DNA of 34,489 nucleotides from a virus (taxonomy: Duplodnaviria > Heunggongvirae > Uroviricota > Caudoviricetes). Positions 1 through 33,072 of this stretch are shown piece after piece (position 1 is the stretch's first letter; the number at the start of each line of letters is the position of its first letter). The notes beneath the pieces are model-generated. The model worked only from the letters and a program-made list of their open reading frames with translations, had not been told where the DNA came from and made no database searches. Location: IMG/VR virus record IMGVR_UViG_2541047695_000003, one strand, 5' to 3'. The position numbers and the translations under genes are program-made.

Positions 1-100
1 AAATTAGATACTAAATATATACGTGAAGGATGTTGAGCTGGTCAACGTCTACGGGGGAGAACATCCCCCGCTAACCTTTTTCTTATTTGAGGATTTACCT

Positions 101-202
101 ATGGTTGAATTTTTGATTTATCTGGCTGTAGGATTAACTATCGTATATTCACTGGCACATATTGGCATTTCTACTTTGTGTAACGCTTTCAAGTATCATT
201 AA
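101..202 (+). CDS. Small hydrophobic peptide (33 aa, MVEFLIYLAVGLTIVYSLAHIGISTLCNAFKYH), hypothetical
   Basis: ATG at 101 preceded by GAGGA Shine-Dalgarno (91-95); uninterrupted to TAA at 200-202; predicted single TM helix. Below the 60-aa cutoff of the ORF track. Confidence 0.25.
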   Translation: MVEFLIYLAVGLTIVYSLAHIGISTLCNAFKYH

Positions 203-255
203 TTAAATCGATGAATTGAACTATAGATGATGGTCGTTTTCAAAGAGGATTATCT

Positions 256-429
256 ATGGATCTTTTTGTCTACTTTGCTACTCTGCTGTTTTTGACTATC
301 GTCGCTGGCATTAAATTGATTTTTATATCGCTGGTGGTATTTTTCAAATTTCTAATCGGTACGCCTTACGGCTGGGTATGTTTAATCCTGTTTATTCTTT
401 TTAGTTGCTGTAAATCAGACACTAAATAA
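256..429 (+). CDS. Small membrane protein (57 aa, two hydrophobic segments), hypothetical
   Basis: ATG at 256 preceded by AGAGGA SD; ORF runs to TAA 427-429; strongly hydrophobic product MDLFVYFATLLFLTIVAGIKLIFISLVVFF...; followed by two + strand terminators. Confidence 0.3.
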   Translation: MDLFVYFATLLFLTIVAGIKLIFISLVVFFKFLIGTPYGWVCLILFILFSCCKSDTK

Positions 430-588
430 TATTGTAATCTGCCTTTTCTCCTTATGTGGTTTTAACAGGGAATTTTCGAAAGAGAGTTCCCGATTAAAAG
501 CCATTAAAACACACTCCAGTACAGTGTTTTCATAGTCAGTGATCTATACAACACAAAAACATAACAAGTATAGATTGAGTATTAATCC

Positions 589-616
589 TCCCGCCCCGAA
601 GGGGGCGGTTATTTTT
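589..616 (+). terminator. Rho-independent terminator (hairpin CCGCCCC-GAAG-GGGGCGG plus T-run)
   Basis: 7-bp GC stem 591-597/602-608 followed by TTATTTTT. Confidence 0.55.
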
Positions 617-693
617 CTGGCTTTAAAGAATAATGTAGCATTATGTTCATTATAACCTCATCTTTGTTGTGCAAACCTAACCTAAACTTACTA

Positions 694-717
694 GGGACTC
701 TTCGGAGTCCCTTTTTT
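694..717 (+). terminator. Rho-independent terminator (GGGACTC-TTCG-GAGTCCC plus TTTTTT), possibly bidirectional
   Basis: Perfect 7-bp stem with UUCG loop and T6 on + strand; A-rich on the other side; overlaps the stop codon of the minus-strand gene 716-1660. Confidence 0.5.
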
Positions 718-1660
718 ATTGGCAGTAAGAAAAGTTAGTACCGTACATTTCATCATGAAGCATTGCAACATTGCGTTTCTGTTCTTCTTCCTCGTCTACC
801 GCATCACTAGAAAAATGAGATTTGCCCTTAAAAGAACGAAGCAATTGCAGTGCAGCCATCGGATCACGCATCACATCGATTTTCACTTCTACTTCATCAT
901 TTGCGGCCTCATCAGCCGCATTTTCAACTACTGCCACCGGAGCAACTTCTTTAGCTTTCAGTTCTTCAATCTCAGCTTTCTGTGCTTCGATGATCTGGTC
1001 TTTTTCTTTCAGTGCAGCTTTCAGTTCTGCGATCTGTGCTTCCAGTGCAGAGAAACGATCTTCAACAGCAACCGGAGAAACAGCATTAACCTGTGCTTCC
1101 AGTTCTACGAAAGCGTCGCAAGATTCAATACGTGCTTTTTCTTCACCTTCATATGCAACCAGTTCTACTACTTCTTTCTCAGTAGCGTGGCTGTTAAAGA
1201 ATACAGCAAAGTAAGGATTGCCGGATTTGGTGAAGTTCAGTTTAGCTTTTCCGGTAACTTCTTTACGACGACCAAAGGTAATGTTGCAATCAGCGGTATC
1301 CTGAAAATCCATGTTAGGAGCGGAAACGATAGCAGTATCACCAGCAATCACTAGGTGGAACAGTTCAGAAGAGTTCTTAACGGTGAAAGTAACGATGTGG
1401 TCTACTGCAACGTCTTTAGCAGGTTTAACGCGGTCGATTGCTTTACGAATGCCGTTAGGCAGTTTACCGTCAACACCAAAGCCAGCCGCGATCAGTGCTT
1501 CACGATGTGCTTTAAAGCCAGCGAAAGCGGATTTCTGCTGCGCAAAGGAAACATGAGCAACAACTTTCGGCTGAATCTTCTTGTTTGCTTCGGTGCCAAA
1601 TTTGATAACTGCTTTAGCGTTGGTTACTTCGTTAGTGAAAAAGTTAGCGGAAAATAACAT
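716..1660 (-). CDS. Hypothetical early protein (314 aa): globular N-terminal region, central coiled-coil, acidic C-terminal tail
   Basis: Long ORF with diverse composition; AGGAG SD 9 nt upstream of ATG (1660); the + strand overlapping ORFs are low-complexity Phe/Ser-rich artefacts. Function not recognised. Confidence 0.75.
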   Translation of the reverse strand: MLFSANFFTNEVTNAKAVIKFGTEANKKIQPKVVAHVSFAQQKSAFAGFKAHREALIAAGFGVDGKLPNGIRKAIDRVKPAKDVAVDHIVTFTVKNSSELFHLVIAGDTAIVSAPNMDFQDTADCNITFGRRKEVTGKAKLNFTKSGNPYFAVFFNSHATEKEVVELVAYEGEEKARIESCDAFVELEAQVNAVSPVAVEDRFSALEAQIAELKAALKEKDQIIEAQKAEIEELKAKEVAPVAVVENAADEAANDEVEVKIDVMRDPMAALQLLRSFKGKSHFSSDAVDEEEEQKRNVAMLHDEMYGTNFSYCQ

Positions 1661-1704
1661 TATAAATACTCCTGTGGAAAGTTAGTTTTAATTGTTCATT
1701 TCAA

Positions 1705-1742
1705 GCCTCCTTTGCTGCAACAAGGGAGGCTTTTTCTTTTTT
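1705..1742 (+). terminator. Hairpin plus T-run (GCCTCCTTTG...CAAGGGAGGC TTTTTCTTTTTT) between two minus-strand genes
   Basis: 10-bp stem (1 mismatch) followed by T-run on the + strand; on the minus-strand RNA the same hairpin lies in the intergenic leader of gene 716-1660 and contains an AGGAGG sequence. Confidence 0.4.
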
Positions 1743-1774
1743 AAAGCCATCATATAATTCTCAGTGAAAGTGGA

Positions 1775-1954
1775 TTAACAAACTTGAACGTTAATCTTTA
1801 CCTGAATTTCGTATTTCTTCATTAGCTTGTAGAATCCGCTTCTATCAATTCCTTCCTTCTTAAAGAAGTTTTCCCCGCCTCGCTCAGTGTCGCTGTAAAA
1901 GCGTTTAGCAATATCAACAATCATTTCACGAGTGAACTTAACAGGTCTAGCCAT
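1775..1954 (-). CDS. Small HTH DNA-binding protein (59 aa, MARPVKFTREMIVDIAKRFY...GIDRSGFYKLMKKYEI), paralog family A
   Basis: ATG at 1954 (minus) with GAGGA SD 8 nt upstream (the track ORF starts at an upstream TTG, 1969). Shares the RPxxF...DIA...GI...FYKxMKK motif with 5372-5599 and the C-terminus of 5634-6239. Confidence 0.6.
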   Translation of the reverse strand: MARPVKFTREMIVDIAKRFYSDTERGGENFFKKEGIDRSGFYKLMKKYEIQVKINVQVC

Positions 1955-2053
1955 AAGTAGATTCCTCAAATGTGGATTAATAAGGACAATAAAAAGAGCT
2001 TTTCGCCCTCGATACTTCTATTTATAAAAGTCATTTCAGAAAACCCTGCAAAA

Positions 2054-2075
2054 CCACTGTGTATCTGATCAGTGG
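2054..2075. repeat. Inverted-repeat site CCACTG-N10-CAGTGG (operator-like)
   Basis: Perfect 6-bp arms; a near-identical copy lies at 2139-2160; adjacent to a candidate leftward promoter (-35 TTGCAG 2050-2045). Confidence 0.4.
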
Positions 2076-2138
2076 GAGCACGAATTGCTAAAGAGAAGAT
2101 TAATTATTAATCAATTCGTACAATATTCAACCGAAAAA

Positions 2139-2177
2139 GCACTGTATATCTAACCAGTGCTGTATGAATTAGCAGTG
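2139..2177. repeat. Inverted-repeat site GCACTG-N10-CAGTGC followed by a third CAGTG half-site
   Basis: GCACTGTATATCTAACCAGTGC (2139-2160), then CAGTG again at 2173-2177; direct repeat of the 2054-2075 element (CACTGT-TATCT-A-CAGTG core). Confidence 0.4.
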
Positions 2178-2296
2178 AATCAGGAGATTTTCAGAAGTGA
2201 ACAATCATTTCACACATGTATTTATAACGTGGAAATTCTTGCTTATCATCTATATGGGGACTGTTTAGAAAATTTCAACCCCCACCAGTGAGAAAA

Positions 2297-2325
2297 AGTA
2301 TAAAATAATCCTTGACAGTTGTCAA
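2297..2325 (-). promoter_or_regulatory. Candidate sigma70-type promoter reading leftward (-35 TTGACA, 17-bp spacer, -10 TATACT), overlapping palindrome TTGACAGTTGTCAA
   Basis: Minus-strand TTGACA at 2325-2320 and TATACT at 2302-2297 with exact 17-nt spacing; the perfect 14-bp palindrome 2312-2325 could also be an operator. Confidence 0.4.
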
Positions 2326-2519
2326 TGCACTTGACCTAAGCGAGAAATGACTATCAAAATTTTTGTTTGAAAATGGTAGATCAGGATTATCAACCTTTAT
2401 AACCTATTATAGCGCGGAGACCTTTTGACAATTCTTTTTAAATCATTAACTTACGCCACTTTTTGGTGATTTTTTGATTAAATAATATACAAGAATTTTC
2501 TATCAAAATATTTGATGGG

Positions 2520-2770
2520 AATTGCCCCTGAAATTCTGAATTTTTGCCCCCGAATAAAATCCCCAAGATTCTACTATCCCATTTTTGCCCCTGAAACCTA
2601 CTATTTTTGCCCCTGAAATTCTGGGAAACAGTGATTTTGCCCCTCATTTTTGCCCCTGAAATGCCAATAATTGCCCCTGAAAATCTAATTTTTGCCCCTC
2701 ATTTTTGCCCCTGAAAAGGATTGGTGAGAAAAACCCTTTATAAAACATTAACTTAGCGAGGGGCAAAAGC
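2520..2770. repeat. Iteron-like array: ~9 direct copies of (T)TTTTGCCCCTGAAA (core GCCCCTGAAA / GCCCCTCA) plus one inverted copy (GAGGGGCAAAA)
   Basis: Cores at 2524, 2555 (variant GCCCCCGAAT), 2587, 2609, 2639 (GCCCCTCA), 2652, 2673, 2694 (GCCCCTCA), 2707; inverted copy 2759-2769; irregular spacing of roughly 13-32 bp; no spacer regularity, no coding potential. Confidence 0.75.
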
Positions 2771-2859
2771 GGGGGATCGGGCGTGCATAGATATTATATA
2801 ACACATTCGCTACGCTCATGTGTAAAACTAAAAACAACAAATAACCAAAAAGATAATTA

Positions 2860-2878
2860 GGAGGGCGTAGCCCGACTG
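2860..2878. repeat. Direct repeat copy 1: GGAGGGCGTAGCCCGACTG (contains GGGC-N3-GCCC mini-hairpin)
   Basis: 16/19 identical to copy at 3291-3309; the two copies bracket ~430 bp of repeat-rich non-coding DNA. Confidence 0.5.
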
Positions 2879-3055
2879 CGCGAAGCGCTAACCAATTACT
2901 TCTAGTAACAACTAATTTAAACTAGATGATACTAGATGGTCTTAGAAGGAATTAACTAGTTTGCTCGCTCGCTTCGCTCACTCTCAAACGTCTGCGACGC
3001 CACTGCGTGGCATCGAGAATCACTTCTGAAAGGATTTTCTCGAAAGGGATTTAAT

Positions 3056-3142
3056 ACTAGTTACTAACTGATTCTAGAAAGATAGTAATAATCACTTTGA
3101 AGATAATAGTAGTTAACTGGTTACTAGATGATTCTAGATCAC
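3056..3142. repeat. Tandem imperfect repeats of a TTACTA(A/G)(C/A)TGATTCTAGA-containing unit (about 60-bp period); related ACTAGATGATACTAGATGG at 2921-2940
   Basis: TTACTAACTGATTCTAGAAA (3061-3080) vs TTACTAGATGATTCTAGATC (3121-3140), 17/20 identical; each followed by CACTTT(G/A)A. Confidence 0.45.
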
Positions 3143-3167
3143 TTTAATGATCATGAAAGGTATTGGT

Positions 3168-3196
3168 ATCCCTTCGGGATTGCAACCTTCGGTTGC
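3168..3196 (+). other. Two adjacent GC-stem hairpins with TTC(G) loops (ATCCC-TTC-GGGAT; GCAACC-TTC-GGTTGC), no T-run
   Basis: Back-to-back stable stem-loops seen directly in the sequence; not followed by a U-run, so not a canonical terminator. Confidence 0.3.
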
Positions 3197-3290
3197 TAAA
3201 TTGCTTCCTGATTATTATTTCTCCAAAAGAAAGATTATTATATTCTAAAGATACTTCTTCGTTTTGATCATAATTTAATCAAATCATGAA

Positions 3291-3309
3291 GGAGGGCTTT
3301 GCCCGACTG
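3291..3309. repeat. Direct repeat copy 2: GGAGGGCTTTGCCCGACTG
   Basis: See copy 1 at 2860-2878. Confidence 0.5.
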
Positions 3310-3398
3310 AATACAATCACCTTTCATAATAACAAGAATTTTCTCTTTATAAATAATAGTGAACTTACTTGATTCACTTTCTTTTAGAGGATACCACT

Positions 3399-3848
3399 AT
3401 GATCAATACTAAAACTCCTTTCGTACTTCTGGGTCTGGACTCTGAAAACTATGGTAACTTCCATATGCTAGAAGTTTTCGCTCATCGTGGTTATAACATC
3501 ATTCGTCATTCCGAAGACTCCAACTACTCAACTGCTTTCTACGCTTTAAAACGAAATGGTCGTCCTACTGTGATCATCGACTGTTTTACTGATGAGGGTC
3601 GTCTTCAATACAACGATATTCCAGCAATTATTGTTCGTGATGATCTGCCGTTTCAAGTCCGTTCCGGTGACATTGACCTGGGTAGCTTCTTGACTCTTCG
3701 TGAACTGGATGAAGCAATGTTTAATTACGGTAAAGAAACCGCTCAGGAAGCCCCAGAACAAGATGAGGAAGACGAAGACTACGCACCAATCGCTTTCTCT
3801 TCTCACGGTGGCTTCTACGGTTACGACGAAGGCTTAGATATGCTGTAA
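3399..3848 (+). CDS. Hypothetical early protein (149 aa) with strongly acidic C-terminal tail
   Basis: ATG at 3399 (MINTKTPFVLLG...) with GAGGA SD; the track ORF starts 10 codons earlier without an RBS. C-terminus EAPEQDEEDEDYAPIAF... is acidic. Confidence 0.7.
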   Translation: MINTKTPFVLLGLDSENYGNFHMLEVFAHRGYNIIRHSEDSNYSTAFYALKRNGRPTVIIDCFTDEGRLQYNDIPAIIVRDDLPFQVRSGDIDLGSFLTLRELDEAMFNYGKETAQEAPEQDEEDEDYAPIAFSSHGGFYGYDEGLDML

Positions 3849-3883
3849 GTTAGGTCAACCCTTTGGCATCTTGTCAAGGGGTA

Positions 3884-3912
3884 TTGACAAAAATTTCTGA
3901 CTTTTTTATGAT
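3884..3912 (+). promoter_or_regulatory. Candidate sigma70 promoter (-35 TTGACA 3884-3889, 17-bp spacer, -10 TATGAT 3907-3912); -35 embedded in inverted repeat TTGTCAAGGGGTATTGACAA (3871-3890)
   Basis: Consensus -35 and near-consensus -10 with 17-nt spacing about 55 nt upstream of the 3969 start codon; a second TTGACA lies at 3921-3926. Confidence 0.5.
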
Positions 3913-3968
3913 TATCGAACTTGACAACTTTGAACCTATTTGACCTAGATTTGTAAAGAGGATGTAAC

Positions 3969-5196: not shown

Positions 5197-5202
5197 TTAA
5201 TC

Positions 5203-5236
5203 GCCCGGCGCATAATTGCGCTGGGCTTTTTGTTTT
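5203..5236 (+). terminator. Rho-independent terminator (GCCCGGCGC-ATAATT-GCGCTGGGC plus TTTTTGTTTTT)
   Basis: 9-bp stem with one G-U pair followed by a T-run directly after the 4390-5196 stop. Confidence 0.7.
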
Positions 5237-5371: not shown

Positions 5372-5599
5372 TCAAAAACCTGTTGCTTCTACGATCTGAC
5401 CATCACCGATCTGAACATAGAATTTAATGTCTAACTTCTTCATATTCTTATAGAATTGGGCAATTGAAATCCCATGTTCACTAAGAATCTGTTCTTTCGC
5501 TTCCTTACCACGATCCGCTGTATAATAAGCGTAGGCAATATCAGCCATTTGTTCAGCGTTAAAACGGGCAGGACGACCGCGAGTAGCTTTAGTAGTCAT
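5372..5599 (-). CDS. Small HTH DNA-binding protein (75 aa, MTTKATRGRPARFNAEQMADIAYAY...GISIAQFYKNMKKL), paralog family A; resembles terminase-small-subunit / AlpA-type N-terminal HTH
   Basis: Second in-frame ATG (5599) has GGAGAA SD at 6-nt spacing; the first ATG (5605) abuts the SD. GRP-x-RF...DIA...GIS..FYK.MKK motif shared with 1775-1954. Confidence 0.6.
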   Translation of the reverse strand: MTTKATRGRPARFNAEQMADIAYAYYTADRGKEAKEQILSEHGISIAQFYKNMKKLDIKFYVQIGDGQIVEATGF

Positions 5600-5633
5600 A
5601 GTCATTTCTCCAAATTAAAGTGAATGTTCACTT

Positions 5634-6326: not shown

Positions 6327-8234
6327 ATGAAACTAATTTCTAATAAGGCCAAATTAAAAAAGATTCTCAGAAATGCAGCCAAATATATTACGCCACCGCC
6401 TAAACTCCTTCCATCGGAATGGTGCGAAGCTAATATGGTGCTGGTAGATGGTCCTCAAGCTGGGGATAAAGTTAAATTGCTGTCATTCCAGAAAGGTATG
6501 ATTGATGCTCCTTTCCTTGAGAACAAGAAAAAGTATGTTCTGATGACCAGTGCGCAGATCGGAAAGACTACCATCCTGAACGGCATCCTGTTTAACCAGA
6601 TGGCTAACGATCCATGCAATATGATTATCGGACAATCAACCGCTAAAGAAATGTCTCAATATCTCGCTGGTAAGATCCGACCGTCTATCGAAGCATGTGA
6701 TGCATTAAAAGACGTGGTTACAGACAAGAATGATCGCAATGCGGTTAACAACAATAACCAACTCCAGCTAAAAACGAATCACTTCCTGTACATGGTATCG
6801 CTTACCAGTCCATCAACCCTGCGCGGTAAGACTGCAAAGGTCGGACTACTAGACGAAATCGATGCTGCTACAGCCTCAGAAGAAGGTGATCCGGTGGCAC
6901 TGGCTGCTAACCGTTTAACTACCTTTGGCGATGAAGGCCGATTAGTCGTATCCAGTACCCCGACCAGTAAGCTCGGAAGCATTAACCAGCAATGGTTATC
7001 AAGCGATATGCGTATGTTTTTTGTTCCGTGTCCTCATTGCGGGGAACACCAGGTGATCGAGTGGGAAAACGTTCAATTTGAATGGCGTAACATCGATGGT
7101 AAGAACTTACCCGATCCTGATACCGCTCGTTATATTTGCCCCCACTGTAAGAACGCATGGACAGAAGGGGAACGAATCAGGGCAGTAGCGCAAGGCGAGT
7201 GGAGAGCAACCCGTGAAAGTGAAGTAGCAGGATTCTGGATTAGCCGTCTGTATTCACCTTTCAGCACGATCCGCGCTTGTGTGGTTGATTTTAGTCATGC
7301 GTGGCAATCCTTTGATTTACAATCATTTTATAACACCGTGTTAGGCAAGGTATACGATGATCAGGACACGGCAGTAGAAGCAAATGAACTGGAACAACTC
7401 AAAACAGATGTTTCTATCGAGAATATCCCTGATGACGTGATTTTCTTGTGCTCAGGAATTGACCAGCAATTGGATCGCGCAGAATCTACCATCTTAGGTG
7501 TAGCGAAAGATAAGGTTTACATTCTGGATCACCGTAGCTTTTACGATCATAACTGTGAACGATACGAATCACCTGTATGGGATCGTCTGGTTAACTTCAA
7601 GAAAACCAAATTCTATAACGTTAATGGTGAACGTGTGCCAATGCTCGCCAGCTTCCTCGATACATCAAACGGTCGATTCACTCAAGCCGGATACCGTATT
7701 TGTGGTAAGTGGAAGAACCTACACGCTATTAAAGGTAGTTCATCTGGTAATGCTCCAGTGATTCCGGTTAAACCTACCCGCACAGGTGGTCATGAATTGC
7801 TTATGCTGGGCGTTAACGTTGGTAAATCCGCTGTTCGTGAAATGCTGGTTAGAAACCTGAAAGATAATCCTCATATTGGCTTAGAAATATCAGAAACCGT
7901 TCCTGATGATTATCTCGATCAGCTTTTGAGTGAATCCATCAAGCGTACTACTACTGGTGTTCGTTGGGTGAAAAATCCAGGTAGTACCCGAAACGAGGCT
8001 CTCGACTGTCTGGTTTATAGCTATGCTGCTTCTCGCTACGTCCTTTCAAAAATGTCATGGGATAAACTCATTGCAATGAAAGACAGCTTAAACAGCGTTA
8101 AAGAAGAACCCGTAAAAGCTCCTGAATCGCAATCTGACGAGCAAATCGAAGAAACTAAGCCAATCACACGACCGCAACGTCAAAACATCGCCAGACGCCC
8201 AAATAGAGGCCGTAGCTGGGTAACATCGTTCTAA
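6327..8234 (+). CDS. Terminase large subunit, lambda gpA family (635 aa)
   Basis: By recall of lambda gpA: matching N-terminal EW-x-ANxxL...FQ segment, Walker-A-like SAQIGKT, CPHCGE...YICPHC zinc-ribbon-like pair, and C-terminal RNEALDC(L/F)VY motif; GAGGG SD; first gene of the long rightward structural operon. Confidence 0.9.
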
Positions 8235-31343: not shown

Positions 31344-33023
31344 TTAAATTCCAAATTCCTGTAATGGACCTGGTATTTCCTCTTCTGGTTTCCAGTTCTT
31401 ATCTGTCAGCATGTCTAAACATGGATGCAGAACAAGCCCGTTGCTCTCCAGAATCTGCCTATCATTGATAGTTTTCAAATCAATGAATATCCGGCCTTTC
31501 CTCGTTCCTCTTGAATTTTCTATTACAACTCTCTGGGTCTTTCCATCGATGTATTCCAGCACAAACAAGTTTTTATTTCTGTCAATCCTGCTACACCCGA
31601 TCCGCTTTAGAGCTTGCTTAATCTTAAACCGGACCTTTAGTCGTTCCTCGTTATAAACATCTTCTAAATCAAATTCTGCGAGCTTCTCCCAGCCTTGAGA
31701 GTCCACAGAATACATTTCCTCTTCTGCCATCTTGATCTGATTGTAGAGTGTTTCACGCTCGCTATTGAGGGTAGTAATCTGATCGGCTAGCTCCTTCGTT
31801 GCTCCTGTCATAGCAGAAAGGGCAATCAGGTTATCAATCTTGCGTGATATTTCATCAACCTGTACTTTCAACGCCGGAACCGGATTAGCCTTGTCCTCAG
31901 CAATCCATATTTTATCAGCCAGCAATTGCAATACAGCTTTCTCTAATTGATCACCTCGAAAACTCCAGTTTGGATGCTCGCAATCAAGTCTACGTGAACG
32001 GGTCGCATCACATGTATAACGATACTGGTCAGAACGTTTGTTCGTTCCCTTCACTTTAACCATAGCGCAACCGCAATGATCACATTTCAATAGGCCAATA
32101 CCACTAAGCAGGGGGATCGGTTTAACTTCTTCCTTGTCTCCAAAGTTCCATGCTCTAGCACCAATATTTTTCTTAAGGTGATAGAACGTAGCATCATCAA
32201 TAACACGAGGGTAATAATCCTTTAACTCATAGTTAACACCATCTACAGAGACTTCCTTGATACCAATCAAAGCGCGGGTATGGAACAACCTTTCAACCAT
32301 TGCCCGTGACCATTTTGAATGCTTCTTGTTGCTTACTGCTGGTGGCGGTGTATATGTCTCGTTAAGGTGATCCAGTATCTCGGCGGTTGAACGTCCATTC
32401 TTCCGTAATTCCACAATCTCCTGAACAACAGGGAAGTATGTAGGATGAGGCAACACATAACCGGAAGTGGTATCCGTCCACCACATATTCTTTCCAACTT
32501 CCTCGATTGCCACTGCCGGATTCTGGGGATTTTCTTGATGGGCTTTAATCTTAATCAGTGCGCTTGAGTTAGTACGATTGCGCTTAGTCTGGCTTTCCTC
32601 ATTACCACGGATGAATAAAAGGATGGAGAACATCAGGTCCATCGGGTTAGCGGTAACAGTATCCAGCGAGTAGATCTTGTTATCCATGCCAGTAACAATG
32701 GTTATTCCCCTACGGATGATTGAAAGGAATAACTCCTGCGCACTGACAATATCGGCACGGGATAAGCGGTCCAAGTTTTCAATGAATAGCCAGCTACCAA
32801 CAGGAACGGATCTACCAATTGCATCAAGGAAACGAGATAGCGCCCCTGTTTTAGAGTTAGCACCCTTAAACGCAGATACACCCAGATCCTGATAATCATT
32901 TACCAGTTCAAGGTCATACTTTGCCGCAACCTCTCTCGCCATCCTGATTTGTCGTTCATAACTCGAACCATCATTCTGACGCATAGACGAGAAGCGAATA
33001 TACGAATACAGTTTAGTTTTCAT
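31344..33023 (-). CDS. Large serine recombinase (serine integrase, 559 aa)
   Basis: N-terminus MKTKLYSYIRFSS...Q with catalytic-Ser resolvase-type domain, then a recombinase domain, Cys cluster (CDHCGC...C-x-A...CEH) and C-terminal coiled-coil, the architecture of phiC31/Bxb1-type integrases. Start taken at ATG 33023 rather than the upstream TTG 33038 of the track. Confidence 0.9.
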   Translation of the reverse strand: MKTKLYSYIRFSSMRQNDGSSYERQIRMAREVAAKYDLELVNDYQDLGVSAFKGANSKTGALSRFLDAIGRSVPVGSWLFIENLDRLSRADIVSAQELFLSIIRRGITIVTGMDNKIYSLDTVTANPMDLMFSILLFIRGNEESQTKRNRTNSSALIKIKAHQENPQNPAVAIEEVGKNMWWTDTTSGYVLPHPTYFPVVQEIVELRKNGRSTAEILDHLNETYTPPPAVSNKKHSKWSRAMVERLFHTRALIGIKEVSVDGVNYELKDYYPRVIDDATFYHLKKNIGARAWNFGDKEEVKPIPLLSGIGLLKCDHCGCAMVKVKGTNKRSDQYRYTCDATRSRRLDCEHPNWSFRGDQLEKAVLQLLADKIWIAEDKANPVPALKVQVDEISRKIDNLIALSAMTGATKELADQITTLNSERETLYNQIKMAEEEMYSVDSQGWEKLAEFDLEDVYNEERLKVRFKIKQALKRIGCSRIDRNKNLFVLEYIDGKTQRVVIENSRGTRKGRIFIDLKTINDRQILESNGLVLHPCLDMLTDKNWKPEEEIPGPLQEFGI

Positions 33024-33030
33024 ACCATTT

Positions 33031-33072
33031 CCAAACAAAAACGCCCCTACCGCGTATTATAACGATAGGGGC
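33031..33072 (-). terminator. Hairpin GCCCCTA...TAGGGGC followed by U-rich tract on minus strand
   Basis: 7-bp stem with 16-nt loop; minus-strand downstream GTTTTTGTTTGG; sits between 33087-33506 and the recombinase start and overlaps the alternative TTG start. Confidence 0.4.

Follow-up and report, generated by a model that had tools for sequence, protein, structure and literature searches.

A non-coding cassette of twin mini-hairpins and an AT-rich unit common to an Escherichia prophage family and RB49-like phages

We analyzed 34,489 nt of tailed-phage DNA (Caudoviricetes; IMG/VR record IMGVR_UViG_2541047695_000003; hereafter, the window), which comprises most of a ~37 kb Escherichia (E. 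coli) prophage, with the focus on two small GC-rich hairpins that precede the first rightward gene. Judging from sequence comparison, these twin mini-hairpins and the adjoining AT-rich unit are one non-coding cassette (3168-3288; Table 1) that recurs in RB49-like phages, and the pattern of conservation supports the hairpins as a selected structure. The function of the cassette would most likely be transcript termination or insulation, or possibly replication priming. New here are the composite cassette, its confinement to two unrelated coliphage lineages and the polarity of the GNA loops.

The twin hairpins lie exactly where the initial annotation had placed them and, as it had also pointed out, lack a T-run; none follows on either strand. 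They are the minimum-free-energy structure on both strands, as RNA (-12.4 kcal/mol, z -2.3, on the plus strand; -13.2 kcal/mol, z -4.2, on the minus strand) and as DNA (z -4.2 and -5.2); the nearest-neighbor DNA fold of the pair comes to only -8.1 to -8.5 kcal/mol, with parameters that omit the special stability of the GNA motif. A terminator scan of the window did not flag them, their tails being TAAATTGC on the plus strand and ACCAATAC on the minus strand. Homologous regions are present in 58 of 5,426 complete E. coli genomes, with identity of 74-98%, and the comparisons among relatives refer to 40 distinct ones (loci named L001 etc.). The twin hairpins are identical in ~34 of these although the flanks are mosaic, and L017 and L050 differ only in the loop of the second hairpin (TTC to TGC). 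Five relatives carry an allele B with the same layout at the same place, namely, TGC-TTC-GCA followed by GACGCTC-(T)AGG-GAGCGTC, and in hairpin 1, RNAalifold detects pairs in which both sides have changed (CG to UA, CG to GC). Nearly all alleles and copies have TTC, closed by a C-G pair, as the hairpin-1 loop (GAA when read on the minus strand); the loop of RB49 locus 1 is TTT. Absence of conserved base-pairing in relatives had been named in advance as the result that would argue against a structured element; because the hairpins are invariant in ~34 of 40 relatives, and divergent alleles and RB49-type phages have other stems in their place, the opposite appears to be the case, with the pairing retained.

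The twin hairpins belong to a larger cluster. A census of perfect GC-rich triloop hairpins yielded 22 in the 34.5 kb, seven of them within 2863-3304 (mean in shuffles, 0.2; 0 of 2000 reach seven). They form three adjacent pairs (2863/2878, 2989/2999 and 3168/3182), the only such pairs in the window, and a single hairpin at 3294, spaced at 126, 179 and 126 nt; in relatives that lack the duplication described below, the spacing is 123-133 nt. In this zone (-510 to -180 relative to the gene start), GNA or its complement accounts for all 11 distinct triloop types, against an expectation of one in eight; the left group has GNA on the plus strand, and pairs 2 and 3 have it on the minus strand, a polarity that is seen in two independent allele classes. 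The stem of the single hairpin covaries among the relatives (GGGC/GCCC, GGC/GCC, TGGC/GCCA), and its loop is free (TTT, TTTA, GAA, TAT). A 20-mer, AGGAGGGC-NNN-GCCCGACTG, which is a hairpin with flanking tandem GA/GA and AG/CU, occurs at both 2859-2878 and 3290-3309, each time with a Shine-Dalgarno-like AGGAGG before it (and no open reading frame, ORF) and CTG after it. Among the four AT-rich spacers (M1 to M4), similarity is detectable only between M1 and M2 (z 4.5) and, weakly, between M2 and M4 (z 2.4), so the idea of diverged tandem cassettes is tentative.

The link to RB49 comes from the AT-rich unit. An intergenic region without annotation that is present in all Krischviruses (RB49-like, T4-type lytic phages) shares 84% identity with the 75-nt stretch 3209-3283, which has no other match in the phage collection. 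The complete RB49 genome (NC_005066.1, 164 kb), which was read throughout, contains four copies of the ~80-nt unit and 92 GC triloop hairpins, with just three adjacent pairs; because each of these pairs abuts a unit, the hairpins and the unit count as one cassette. In scans of IMG/VR and metagenome collections, the core of the unit is confined to two lineages, the present prophage family and the RB49-type phages; neither the twin-hairpin motif nor the leader motif was found among the GTDB species representatives (one genome per species), and the proteins encoded by the RB49 genes that flank the cassettes show no homology to those of the window. Mosaic joints adjoin the cassette in both lineages, with breakpoints at ~3020 and ~3118 in the E. 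coli relatives and an upstream flank that switches exactly at hairpin 1 in an RB49-like contig (L066). The unit allele of the window at 3263-3271 (TTGATCATAAT) is that of RB49, most E. coli relatives carrying TTGATGATGAT; the identity hints at a recent exchange involving this allele. The RB49 cassette loci (62784-62882, 97491-97763 and 149990-150098; loci L063 and L064/L065) are all located in late-gene regions, and at two of them the late-promoter-like sequence (T/A)ATAAATA of gene 3 and gene 36 lies 6-16 nt past hairpin 1 on the opposite strand. For the sole locus inspected for regulatory features, 97.4-97.8 kb, the RB49 record lists no promoter.

The initial annotation suggested a structured leader or processing site ahead of the gene that starts at 3399, which would imply that the hairpins fold in the plus-strand RNA of the rightward early operon. 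The only sigma-70-like promoter that is conserved in all relatives, however, lies 130-190 nt downstream of the hairpins: its -10 element falls within TTATAAATA (3347-3357), which is invariant in 40 of 40 relatives and is followed by A or C. On the plus strand, no promoter-like site scores in 2361-3325, and no conserved sigma-70 site was found upstream of the hairpins. With the conserved promoter downstream and nothing upstream for ~800 nt, a leader of this gene becomes improbable, and we assign this reading a very low likelihood. It is compatible with the fold of the hairpins on the plus strand, where RNAalifold also recovers hairpin 1, a long hairpin in the unit and the single hairpin; with a G-U pair in the RB49 units (AACCGAAAC / GUUUUGGUU) that is possible on this strand only; and with the complementarity (12 of 13) of 3221-3233 to the Shine-Dalgarno region 3377-3389, through which a read-through RNA could mask the ribosome-binding site. 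That complementarity is gone, however, in the divergent unit alleles, UUC triloops have no special stability in RNA, and two of the three RB49 cassettes lack a downstream gene in this orientation. TTATAAATA also holds TATAAATA, the T4-type late-promoter consensus, along with good sigma-70 -10 hexamers; the sigma-70 reading seems simpler than the late-promoter one, the RB49 link notwithstanding.

Conservation of loop 1, the T-rich tails in RB49 and an upstream TAGAAT point, rather, to the minus strand as the one that matters. A terminator scan of the RB49-type copies flags hairpin 1 on the reverse strand with a T-rich tail at two of the three loci (GTCGCAAAGCGAC AATTGTTAAT; GTCGCGAAGCGAT ATTTTGTTAA), and the GTCGCGAAGCGAT ATTTTGTTAA copy contains a G-T pair that is possible only on the minus strand. 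The AT-rich box contains a minus-strand -10-like TAGAAT (3247-3242) within the element TGATCA-17-TAGAAT. The TAGAAT recurs on the same strand, 32-57 nt upstream of the hairpins, in most copies (the window and three of the four RB49 units), and ~20 of 40 relatives score 8/12 at this element.

These minus-strand observations, along with the precedent of the promoter-early stem-loop (PeSL) cassettes of phages RB49 and phi1, lead us to rank first, and to hold tentatively, a PeSL-like reading under which the hairpins, read on the minus strand, would be a transcript terminator, a 3'-end structure or stabilizer, or an insulator, and would also serve as a recombination joint. PeSL stem-loops, which lack canonical U-tracts and are joined to AT-rich promoter DNA, terminate transcription efficiently in RB49/phi1 and mediate module shuffling (PMC2839356). 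Similarly, the present cassette would move between coliphage genomes by recombination and act at the transcript level: the box would supply the weak minus-strand promoter-like element, and ~45 nt past it, the two GC hairpins with their GAA triloops would form a 3' end, where they would either terminate or stabilize a short (~70 nt) leftward RNA or attenuate any transcription that passes through the control region. The three pairs and the single hairpin, ~126 nt apart, might jointly insulate the early operon with its promoter at 3329-3357 from the region of the iterons and the leftward operon. As in the PeSLs, a stable stem-loop is combined with an AT-rich segment, and the combination is repeated in a genome and located at joints of insertion, deletion or replacement.

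Several facts weigh against this reading. The hairpins of the window lack a T-run (the tail on the minus strand is ACCAATACCTTTC), so that any termination at this site would be weak or non-canonical, and the pair falls outside the strict definition of a terminator. The minus-strand promoter-like element is poor (8/12, with a weak -35) and is lost in the divergent unit alleles of L008, L013, L017, L020 and L054, and one RB49 copy has TAGAAC. On neither strand does any site in 3168-3288 score at least 9/12, nor does any inside the units at RB49 loci 1-3; because the cassette contains no consensus promoter, it is not a PeSL in the strict sense, and the text of PMC2839356 mentions neither these RB49 loci nor the motif. 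The unit's own fold is no better than shuffles in most copies, and no Rfam family was matched, the whole window yielding nothing at the gathering threshold and only noise below it (best E >0.7). One relative, L046, lacks the entire block (~3055-3320), which is thus dispensable for prophage maintenance. Finally, C-G-closed GNA triloops are exceptionally stable in DNA but not in RNA (PMC13037366), which in terms of loop stability would favor a signal at the level of DNA.

Under this alternative, which we consider unlikely, the hairpins would extrude as single-stranded or cruciform mini-hairpins and, together with an AT-rich unwinding element, make up a replication or priming module. In the prophage, it would be a priming domain beside an iteron domain, as in the IncQ oriV with its iterons, AT-rich region, and ssiA and ssiB on opposite strands; in RB49, the cassettes would mark three origins in late-gene regions. 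The GNA bias of the triloops, with its strand-split polarity in two independent allele classes, fits such a signal, since in DNA, mini-hairpins of the type d(C-GNA-G) have extraordinary stability and have been reported at the G4 origin, in RSF1010 ssiA (CCGAAGG) and in the N4 promoters (PMC13037366); read on the minus strand, both twin hairpins have precisely this CCGAAGG as their tip. An iteron array is located 450 nt to the left, and in relatives, three other iteron classes occupy the same place (AACCTACACTA; TCCCCG-type; AATCCCCAAGATTCCA). The class of iteron, four in all, goes with the allele of the leftward 314-aa protein (mutual identity of the alleles is just 21-26%), the hairpin domain being common to all, so that the iterons and this protein look like an exchangeable DNA-binding specificity module, either origin/initiator or operator/regulator. 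Two other hairpins of the region, 2863-2873 and 3294-3304, have CTG 2 nt on their 3' side, forming a "hairpin-GA-CTG" motif at 2863-2878 and 3294-3309, and DnaG starts at the CTG 3' of the G4ori hairpins (PMC6783573). T4 has at least five origins, mostly in late-transcribed regions, each with a promoter and an AT-rich DNA unwinding element (PMC3016281), and the RB49 cassettes likewise lie in late regions. The prophage, moreover, encodes no recognizable replication genes, primase or helicase. Nevertheless, the twin hairpins have no conserved CTG on their 3' side, whichever strand is read (allele A alone has one, 12 nt away on the plus strand, and there is none on the minus strand), and the loop polarity is not strict, given that relative to the unit, hairpin 2 has the loop GTA in two RB49 copies and TAC in the third. 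Neither a primase nor an initiator was identified, and AlphaFold gave an unusable model (pLDDT 35) of the 314-aa protein. According to a review of T4 (PMC3016281), the T4 origins share no sequence motif, and the absence of the block from L046 counts against this alternative as well. We see only a small chance that the cassette is a portable, host-factor-driven replication-initiation or priming module that marks RB49-type origins (~62.8, 97.6 and 150.0 kb) and provides the shared priming domain of the prophage origin. If it is, tailed phages would possess an IncQ-oriV-like two-domain origin with interchangeable iteron/initiator specificity modules.

Still less probable, in our assessment, is a relic or selfish recombination linker that has no present function, an "empty cassette" resembling a PeSL or a miniature inverted-repeat transposable element and spread by illegitimate or short-homology recombination among coliphages. 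Presence in only two unrelated lineages, in both orientations and at mosaic joints, loss in L046, Shine-Dalgarno-like AGGAGG or GAAAGG without an ORF ahead of three of the four hairpin clusters, and a weak similarity of the spacer 3012-3167 to the promoter-leader segment 3305-3401 (z 2.4, 5 of 300 shuffles) are all compatible with such an origin. However, the hairpin sequences are invariant while the flanks of the relatives differ by 10-25%, the twin layout survives complete replacement of the stems, and the hairpin-1 loop is near-invariant, which together argue for purifying selection.

The cassette is preceded by a repeat, described in the initial annotation as tandem ~60-bp units immediately followed by the hairpins. 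The periodicity is real: TTACTAACTGATTCTAGAAA (3061-3080) and TTACTAGATGATTCTAGATC (3121-3140) are identical in 16 of 20 positions at an offset of 60, and the best ungapped register (3056-3078 versus 3116-3138, 20 of 23) exceeds chance, the best 23-mer match in 200 dinucleotide-preserving shuffles of 2850-3400 never being above 18 of 23. There is no tandem array, however. Tandem Repeats Finder calls none, the units align only with a 13-nt indel, and besides the ~23 nt, only a second block is similar (3091-3107 versus 3138-3154, 82%, offset 47), so that the similarity reflects a duplication with an indel, not clean units of 60 bp; nor do the hairpins follow immediately, 27 nt separating 3140 from 3168. 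Copy 2 is present in some relatives, truncated by ~25 nt in others (L001, L004) and absent from most of the L005-L018 group. The 60-nt phasing is accordingly not conserved, and of the proposed phased binding sites, only binding at CTAG motifs still appears possible. The repeat is best read as a recent local duplication of a CTAG-centered, operator-like spacer.

Possible, if rather doubtful, is the reading of the CTAG-centered motifs and the AATCACTTTC-TA-GAAAGGTATT palindromes as operators of a phage DNA-binding protein that would regulate the early promoter from upstream, with the 60-aa protein, the 77-aa protein or the Rha-family protein as candidate binders; it covers the repeat only and is compatible with the other readings. 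CTAG is 2.5-fold under-represented in the window (50 sites), and yet eight of the 50 sites fall within the 250 nt of 2890-3140. Five CTAG-containing 17-mers (starting at 2911, 2921, 2931, 3063 and 3123) form a motif family, three of them at 10-nt spacing within a 60-nt imperfect palindrome (2894-2953). The palindrome just upstream of the hairpins, interrupted in the window, has the form AATCACTTTC-TA-GAAAGGTATTGG, centered on CTAG, in other alleles, and in L037 (4328-4394, minus strand) there is a perfect 46-bp palindrome, likewise centered on CTAG, that takes in the left arm of hairpin 1. The location between divergent operons of a temperate phage, and the recurrence of half-sites (ATCAC[C]TTTC) at 3314-3325, beside the -35 region, and at 3372-3382, within the leader, are also what operators would predict. 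Conversely, copy number and spacing differ among relatives, the motif is degenerate, no binding protein was identified, and RB49 CTTCTAGTAA becomes CTTCCAGTAA or CTTCCGGTAA in other Krischviruses. Among other candidates, a TrpR-like operator was rejected because ATACTAGTTA, although it resembles the trp operator, has a second half-site that misfits; potential sites for IHF (WATCAANNNNTTR), DnaA boxes, oriC-type 13-mers, a Fur box and boxA each show, by eye, at least one mismatch and none is conserved between copies; and a -10-like GATAAT at 3102-3107 is confined to relatives that carry the duplication.

The cassette and the repeat sit in a 1.43-kb gap (~1970-3398) that contains no plausible ORFs, between a leftward gene pair (60 aa, 314 aa) and a rightward operon (149 aa, 110 aa, Rha-family). 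RefSeq annotates nothing inside the gap at any of the 21 loci inspected, and a 28-aa ORF from the ATG at 3287 was discarded given 1- and 2-nt indels among relatives. No close relative of the window was found among deposited phages or plasmids; in strain BS74R-D, hicB is the insertion site of the element. Searches of Pfam, NCBIfam and PDB retrieve nothing for the 149-aa, 314-aa, 201-aa and 332-aa proteins, and PHROG yields a weak "endonuclease" match at most. The C-terminal tail of the 149-aa protein is strongly acidic and aromatic (EEDEDY...GFYGYDEGLDML), and the N-terminus of this protein is weakly similar to CheY (E 0.3). The 60-aa (1775-1957, minus strand) and 77-aa (5372-5605, minus strand) proteins are paralog-like by eye, with the pattern RP.[KR]F..E...DIA..Y ... 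GI....FYK.MKK; these are probably small DNA-binding proteins, and each of their genes adjoins that of a larger ORFan (314 aa and 201 aa, respectively). A strong leftward promoter-like site, TTGACA-17-TATACT (2297-2340, 11/12), lies within the palindrome TTGACAgtTGTCAA, and its ~330-nt leader contains two alike hairpins, CCACTG-N10-CAGTGG and GCACTG-N10-CAGTGC (2053-2160). In L001 (E. coli PE15, NZ_CP041628.1), positions 1-3916 hold an ISApl1-mcr-1-pap2 composite transposon inserted in the prophage directly to the left of the 314-aa gene.

Table 1. Features of the window and of the RB49 cassette loci (RB49 positions refer to NC_005066.1)
Feature	Position	Strand	Remarks
Hairpin 1	3168-3180		ATCCC-TTC-GGGAT; GAA triloop on minus strand
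Hairpin 2	3182-3196		GCAACC-TTC-GGTTGC; one base after hairpin 1
AT-rich unit, ~80 nt	3209-3288		conserved core TTCTAAAGATNNTTCTTCGTTTTG; 80-84% identical to the four RB49 copies
RB49 locus 1	hairpins 62784-62809; cassette 62784-62882		GTCGC-TTT-GCGAC, GTGCC-GTA-GGCAC; between gene 3 and ORF130
RB49 locus 2	hairpins 97640-97663; cassette 97640-97763		TCGC-TTC-GCGA, ACTCC-TAC-GGAGT; between ORF165 and DprA-like gene
RB49 locus 3	hairpins 150074-150098; cassette 150098-149990		stem types of locus 2, reversed; between genes 35 and 36
Hairpin pair 1	2859-2888	+	AGGAGGGC-GTA-GCCCGACTG, then GCGC-GAA-GCGC; GNA loops on plus strand
Hairpin pair 2	2989-3011		CGTC-TGC-GACG and GCCAC-TGC-GTGGC; GCA loops on minus strand
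Single hairpin	3290-3309	+	AG-GA-GGGC-TTT-GCCC-GA-CTG
Sigma-70-like promoter	3329-3357	+	ATAACA-17-AATAAT; only one conserved in all relatives
Repeat copy 1	3056-3078		CTAG-rich ACTAGTTACTAACTGATTCTAGA; kept in most relatives
Repeat copy 2	3116-3138		ACTGGTTACTAGATGATTCTAGA; 20/23 identical to copy 1, offset 60; missing or truncated in many relatives
Three CTAG motif copies	2911-2947		10-nt spacing; within imperfect palindrome
Operator-like imperfect palindrome	3138-3164		ATCACTTT ... GAAAGGTATT
Iteron array	2519-2716		~10 copies of TTTTTGCCCCTGAAA
314-aa protein gene	716-1660	-	N-terminal domain, coiled coil, acidic tail
149-aa ORFan, first rightward gene	3399-3848	+	known only from Escherichia and Shigella
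Terminator closing rightward operon	5202-5235		
Lambda-type gpA large terminase (TerL)	6327-8234		
Portal, protease-capsid fusion, tail and fiber genes			encoded in window
Serine integrase	31344-33038	-	

It is unusual for a selected non-coding element to be common to a temperate prophage family and a lytic T4-like genus unrelated to it, and to be absent elsewhere in several large collections; the cassette presents a case of regulatory or replicative DNA passing between phages without any gene. Should it be a terminator or small-RNA cassette, the concept of mobile regulatory cassettes, as put forward for the PeSLs, would reach beyond the T4-like phages; should it be an origin or priming module, it would locate the RB49-type origins and explain how replication starts in a 37-kb prophage that encodes no recognizable replication genes. 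In either case, the present observations caution against taking such hairpins as leaders of the nearest gene.

The cassette was also compared with other known systems. A lambda-type cos site does not fit, the TerL gene starting 3 kb away, behind the terminator of the rightward operon and two reverse-strand genes, and the cassette being present also in RB49, a T4-like phage that packages by headful. In a lambda-type nut boxB, a GNRNA pentaloop caps a stem of 5 bp and boxA precedes it, whereas the window loops are 3 nt long and there is no CGCTCTTA nearby. The put RNAs of HK022 similarly comprise two stem-loops with one unpaired base between them, are encoded in a temperate coliphage, within its control region, and act without a U-tract; these are ~70 nt RNAs with long bulged stems located directly downstream of PL and PR, unlike the stems of 5-6 bp in the window, which have no evident upstream promoter and no Rfam match. 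The C(UUCG)G intercistronic hairpins of T4 are small stable hairpins between phage genes, and both window hairpins contain CTTCGG, but the register gives a UUC triloop with 5-6 bp, and a UUCG tetraloop would leave only one or two pairs. Intrinsic (Rho-independent) terminators, including tandem-hairpin forms, are likewise short GC-rich intergenic hairpins, and RB49 hairpin 1 on the reverse strand with its T-rich tail resembles them; the window differs in having no T-run and stems of only 5-6 bp with triloops.

Among DNA-level signals, the early hairpin promoters of N4, recognized by the virion RNA polymerase, are extruded from supercoiled DNA as stems of 5-7 bp with loops of 3 nt (GGA or GAA), similar to the 5-bp stem and GAA loop of hairpin 1 on the minus strand; no ORF for such a polymerase was found in the window or among the annotated genes of RB49. 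The GNA mini-hairpin DNA d(GCGNAGC) shares the C-GNA-G triloop with the window, where both twin hairpins are C-GAA-G on the minus strand (PMC13037366), and with regard to the G4 oric and RSF1010 ssiA signals, the twin hairpins have CCGAAGG tips, and a CTG is located 3' of two other hairpins in the region (PMC13037366, PMC6783573). As in the IncQ oriV, window hairpins on opposite strands lie beside an iteron array and AT-rich DNA. In contrast to the single-strand initiation signals, the window encodes no cognate primase (RepB') and has no conserved CTG at the twin hairpins, and the G4-type signals consist of three larger hairpins. The PeSL cassettes are consensus sigma-70 promoters with a single stem-loop in or around them, which lie in early hyperplastic regions and are aimed at a downstream ORFan; the present cassette consists of two tandem triloop hairpins beside an 80-nt conserved box, contains no consensus promoter and is common to a temperate prophage, and its RB49 copies are in late-gene regions, two of the three lacking a downstream gene. 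Like the PeSLs of RB49/phi1 and other T4-like phages, however, it is a repeated composite non-coding cassette in which a GC-rich stem-loop without a canonical U-tract is combined with an AT-rich segment, is intergenic and located at mosaic joints, and has RB49 as a host phage, and the PeSL stem-loops have been shown to terminate transcription (PMC2839356, PMC4122927).

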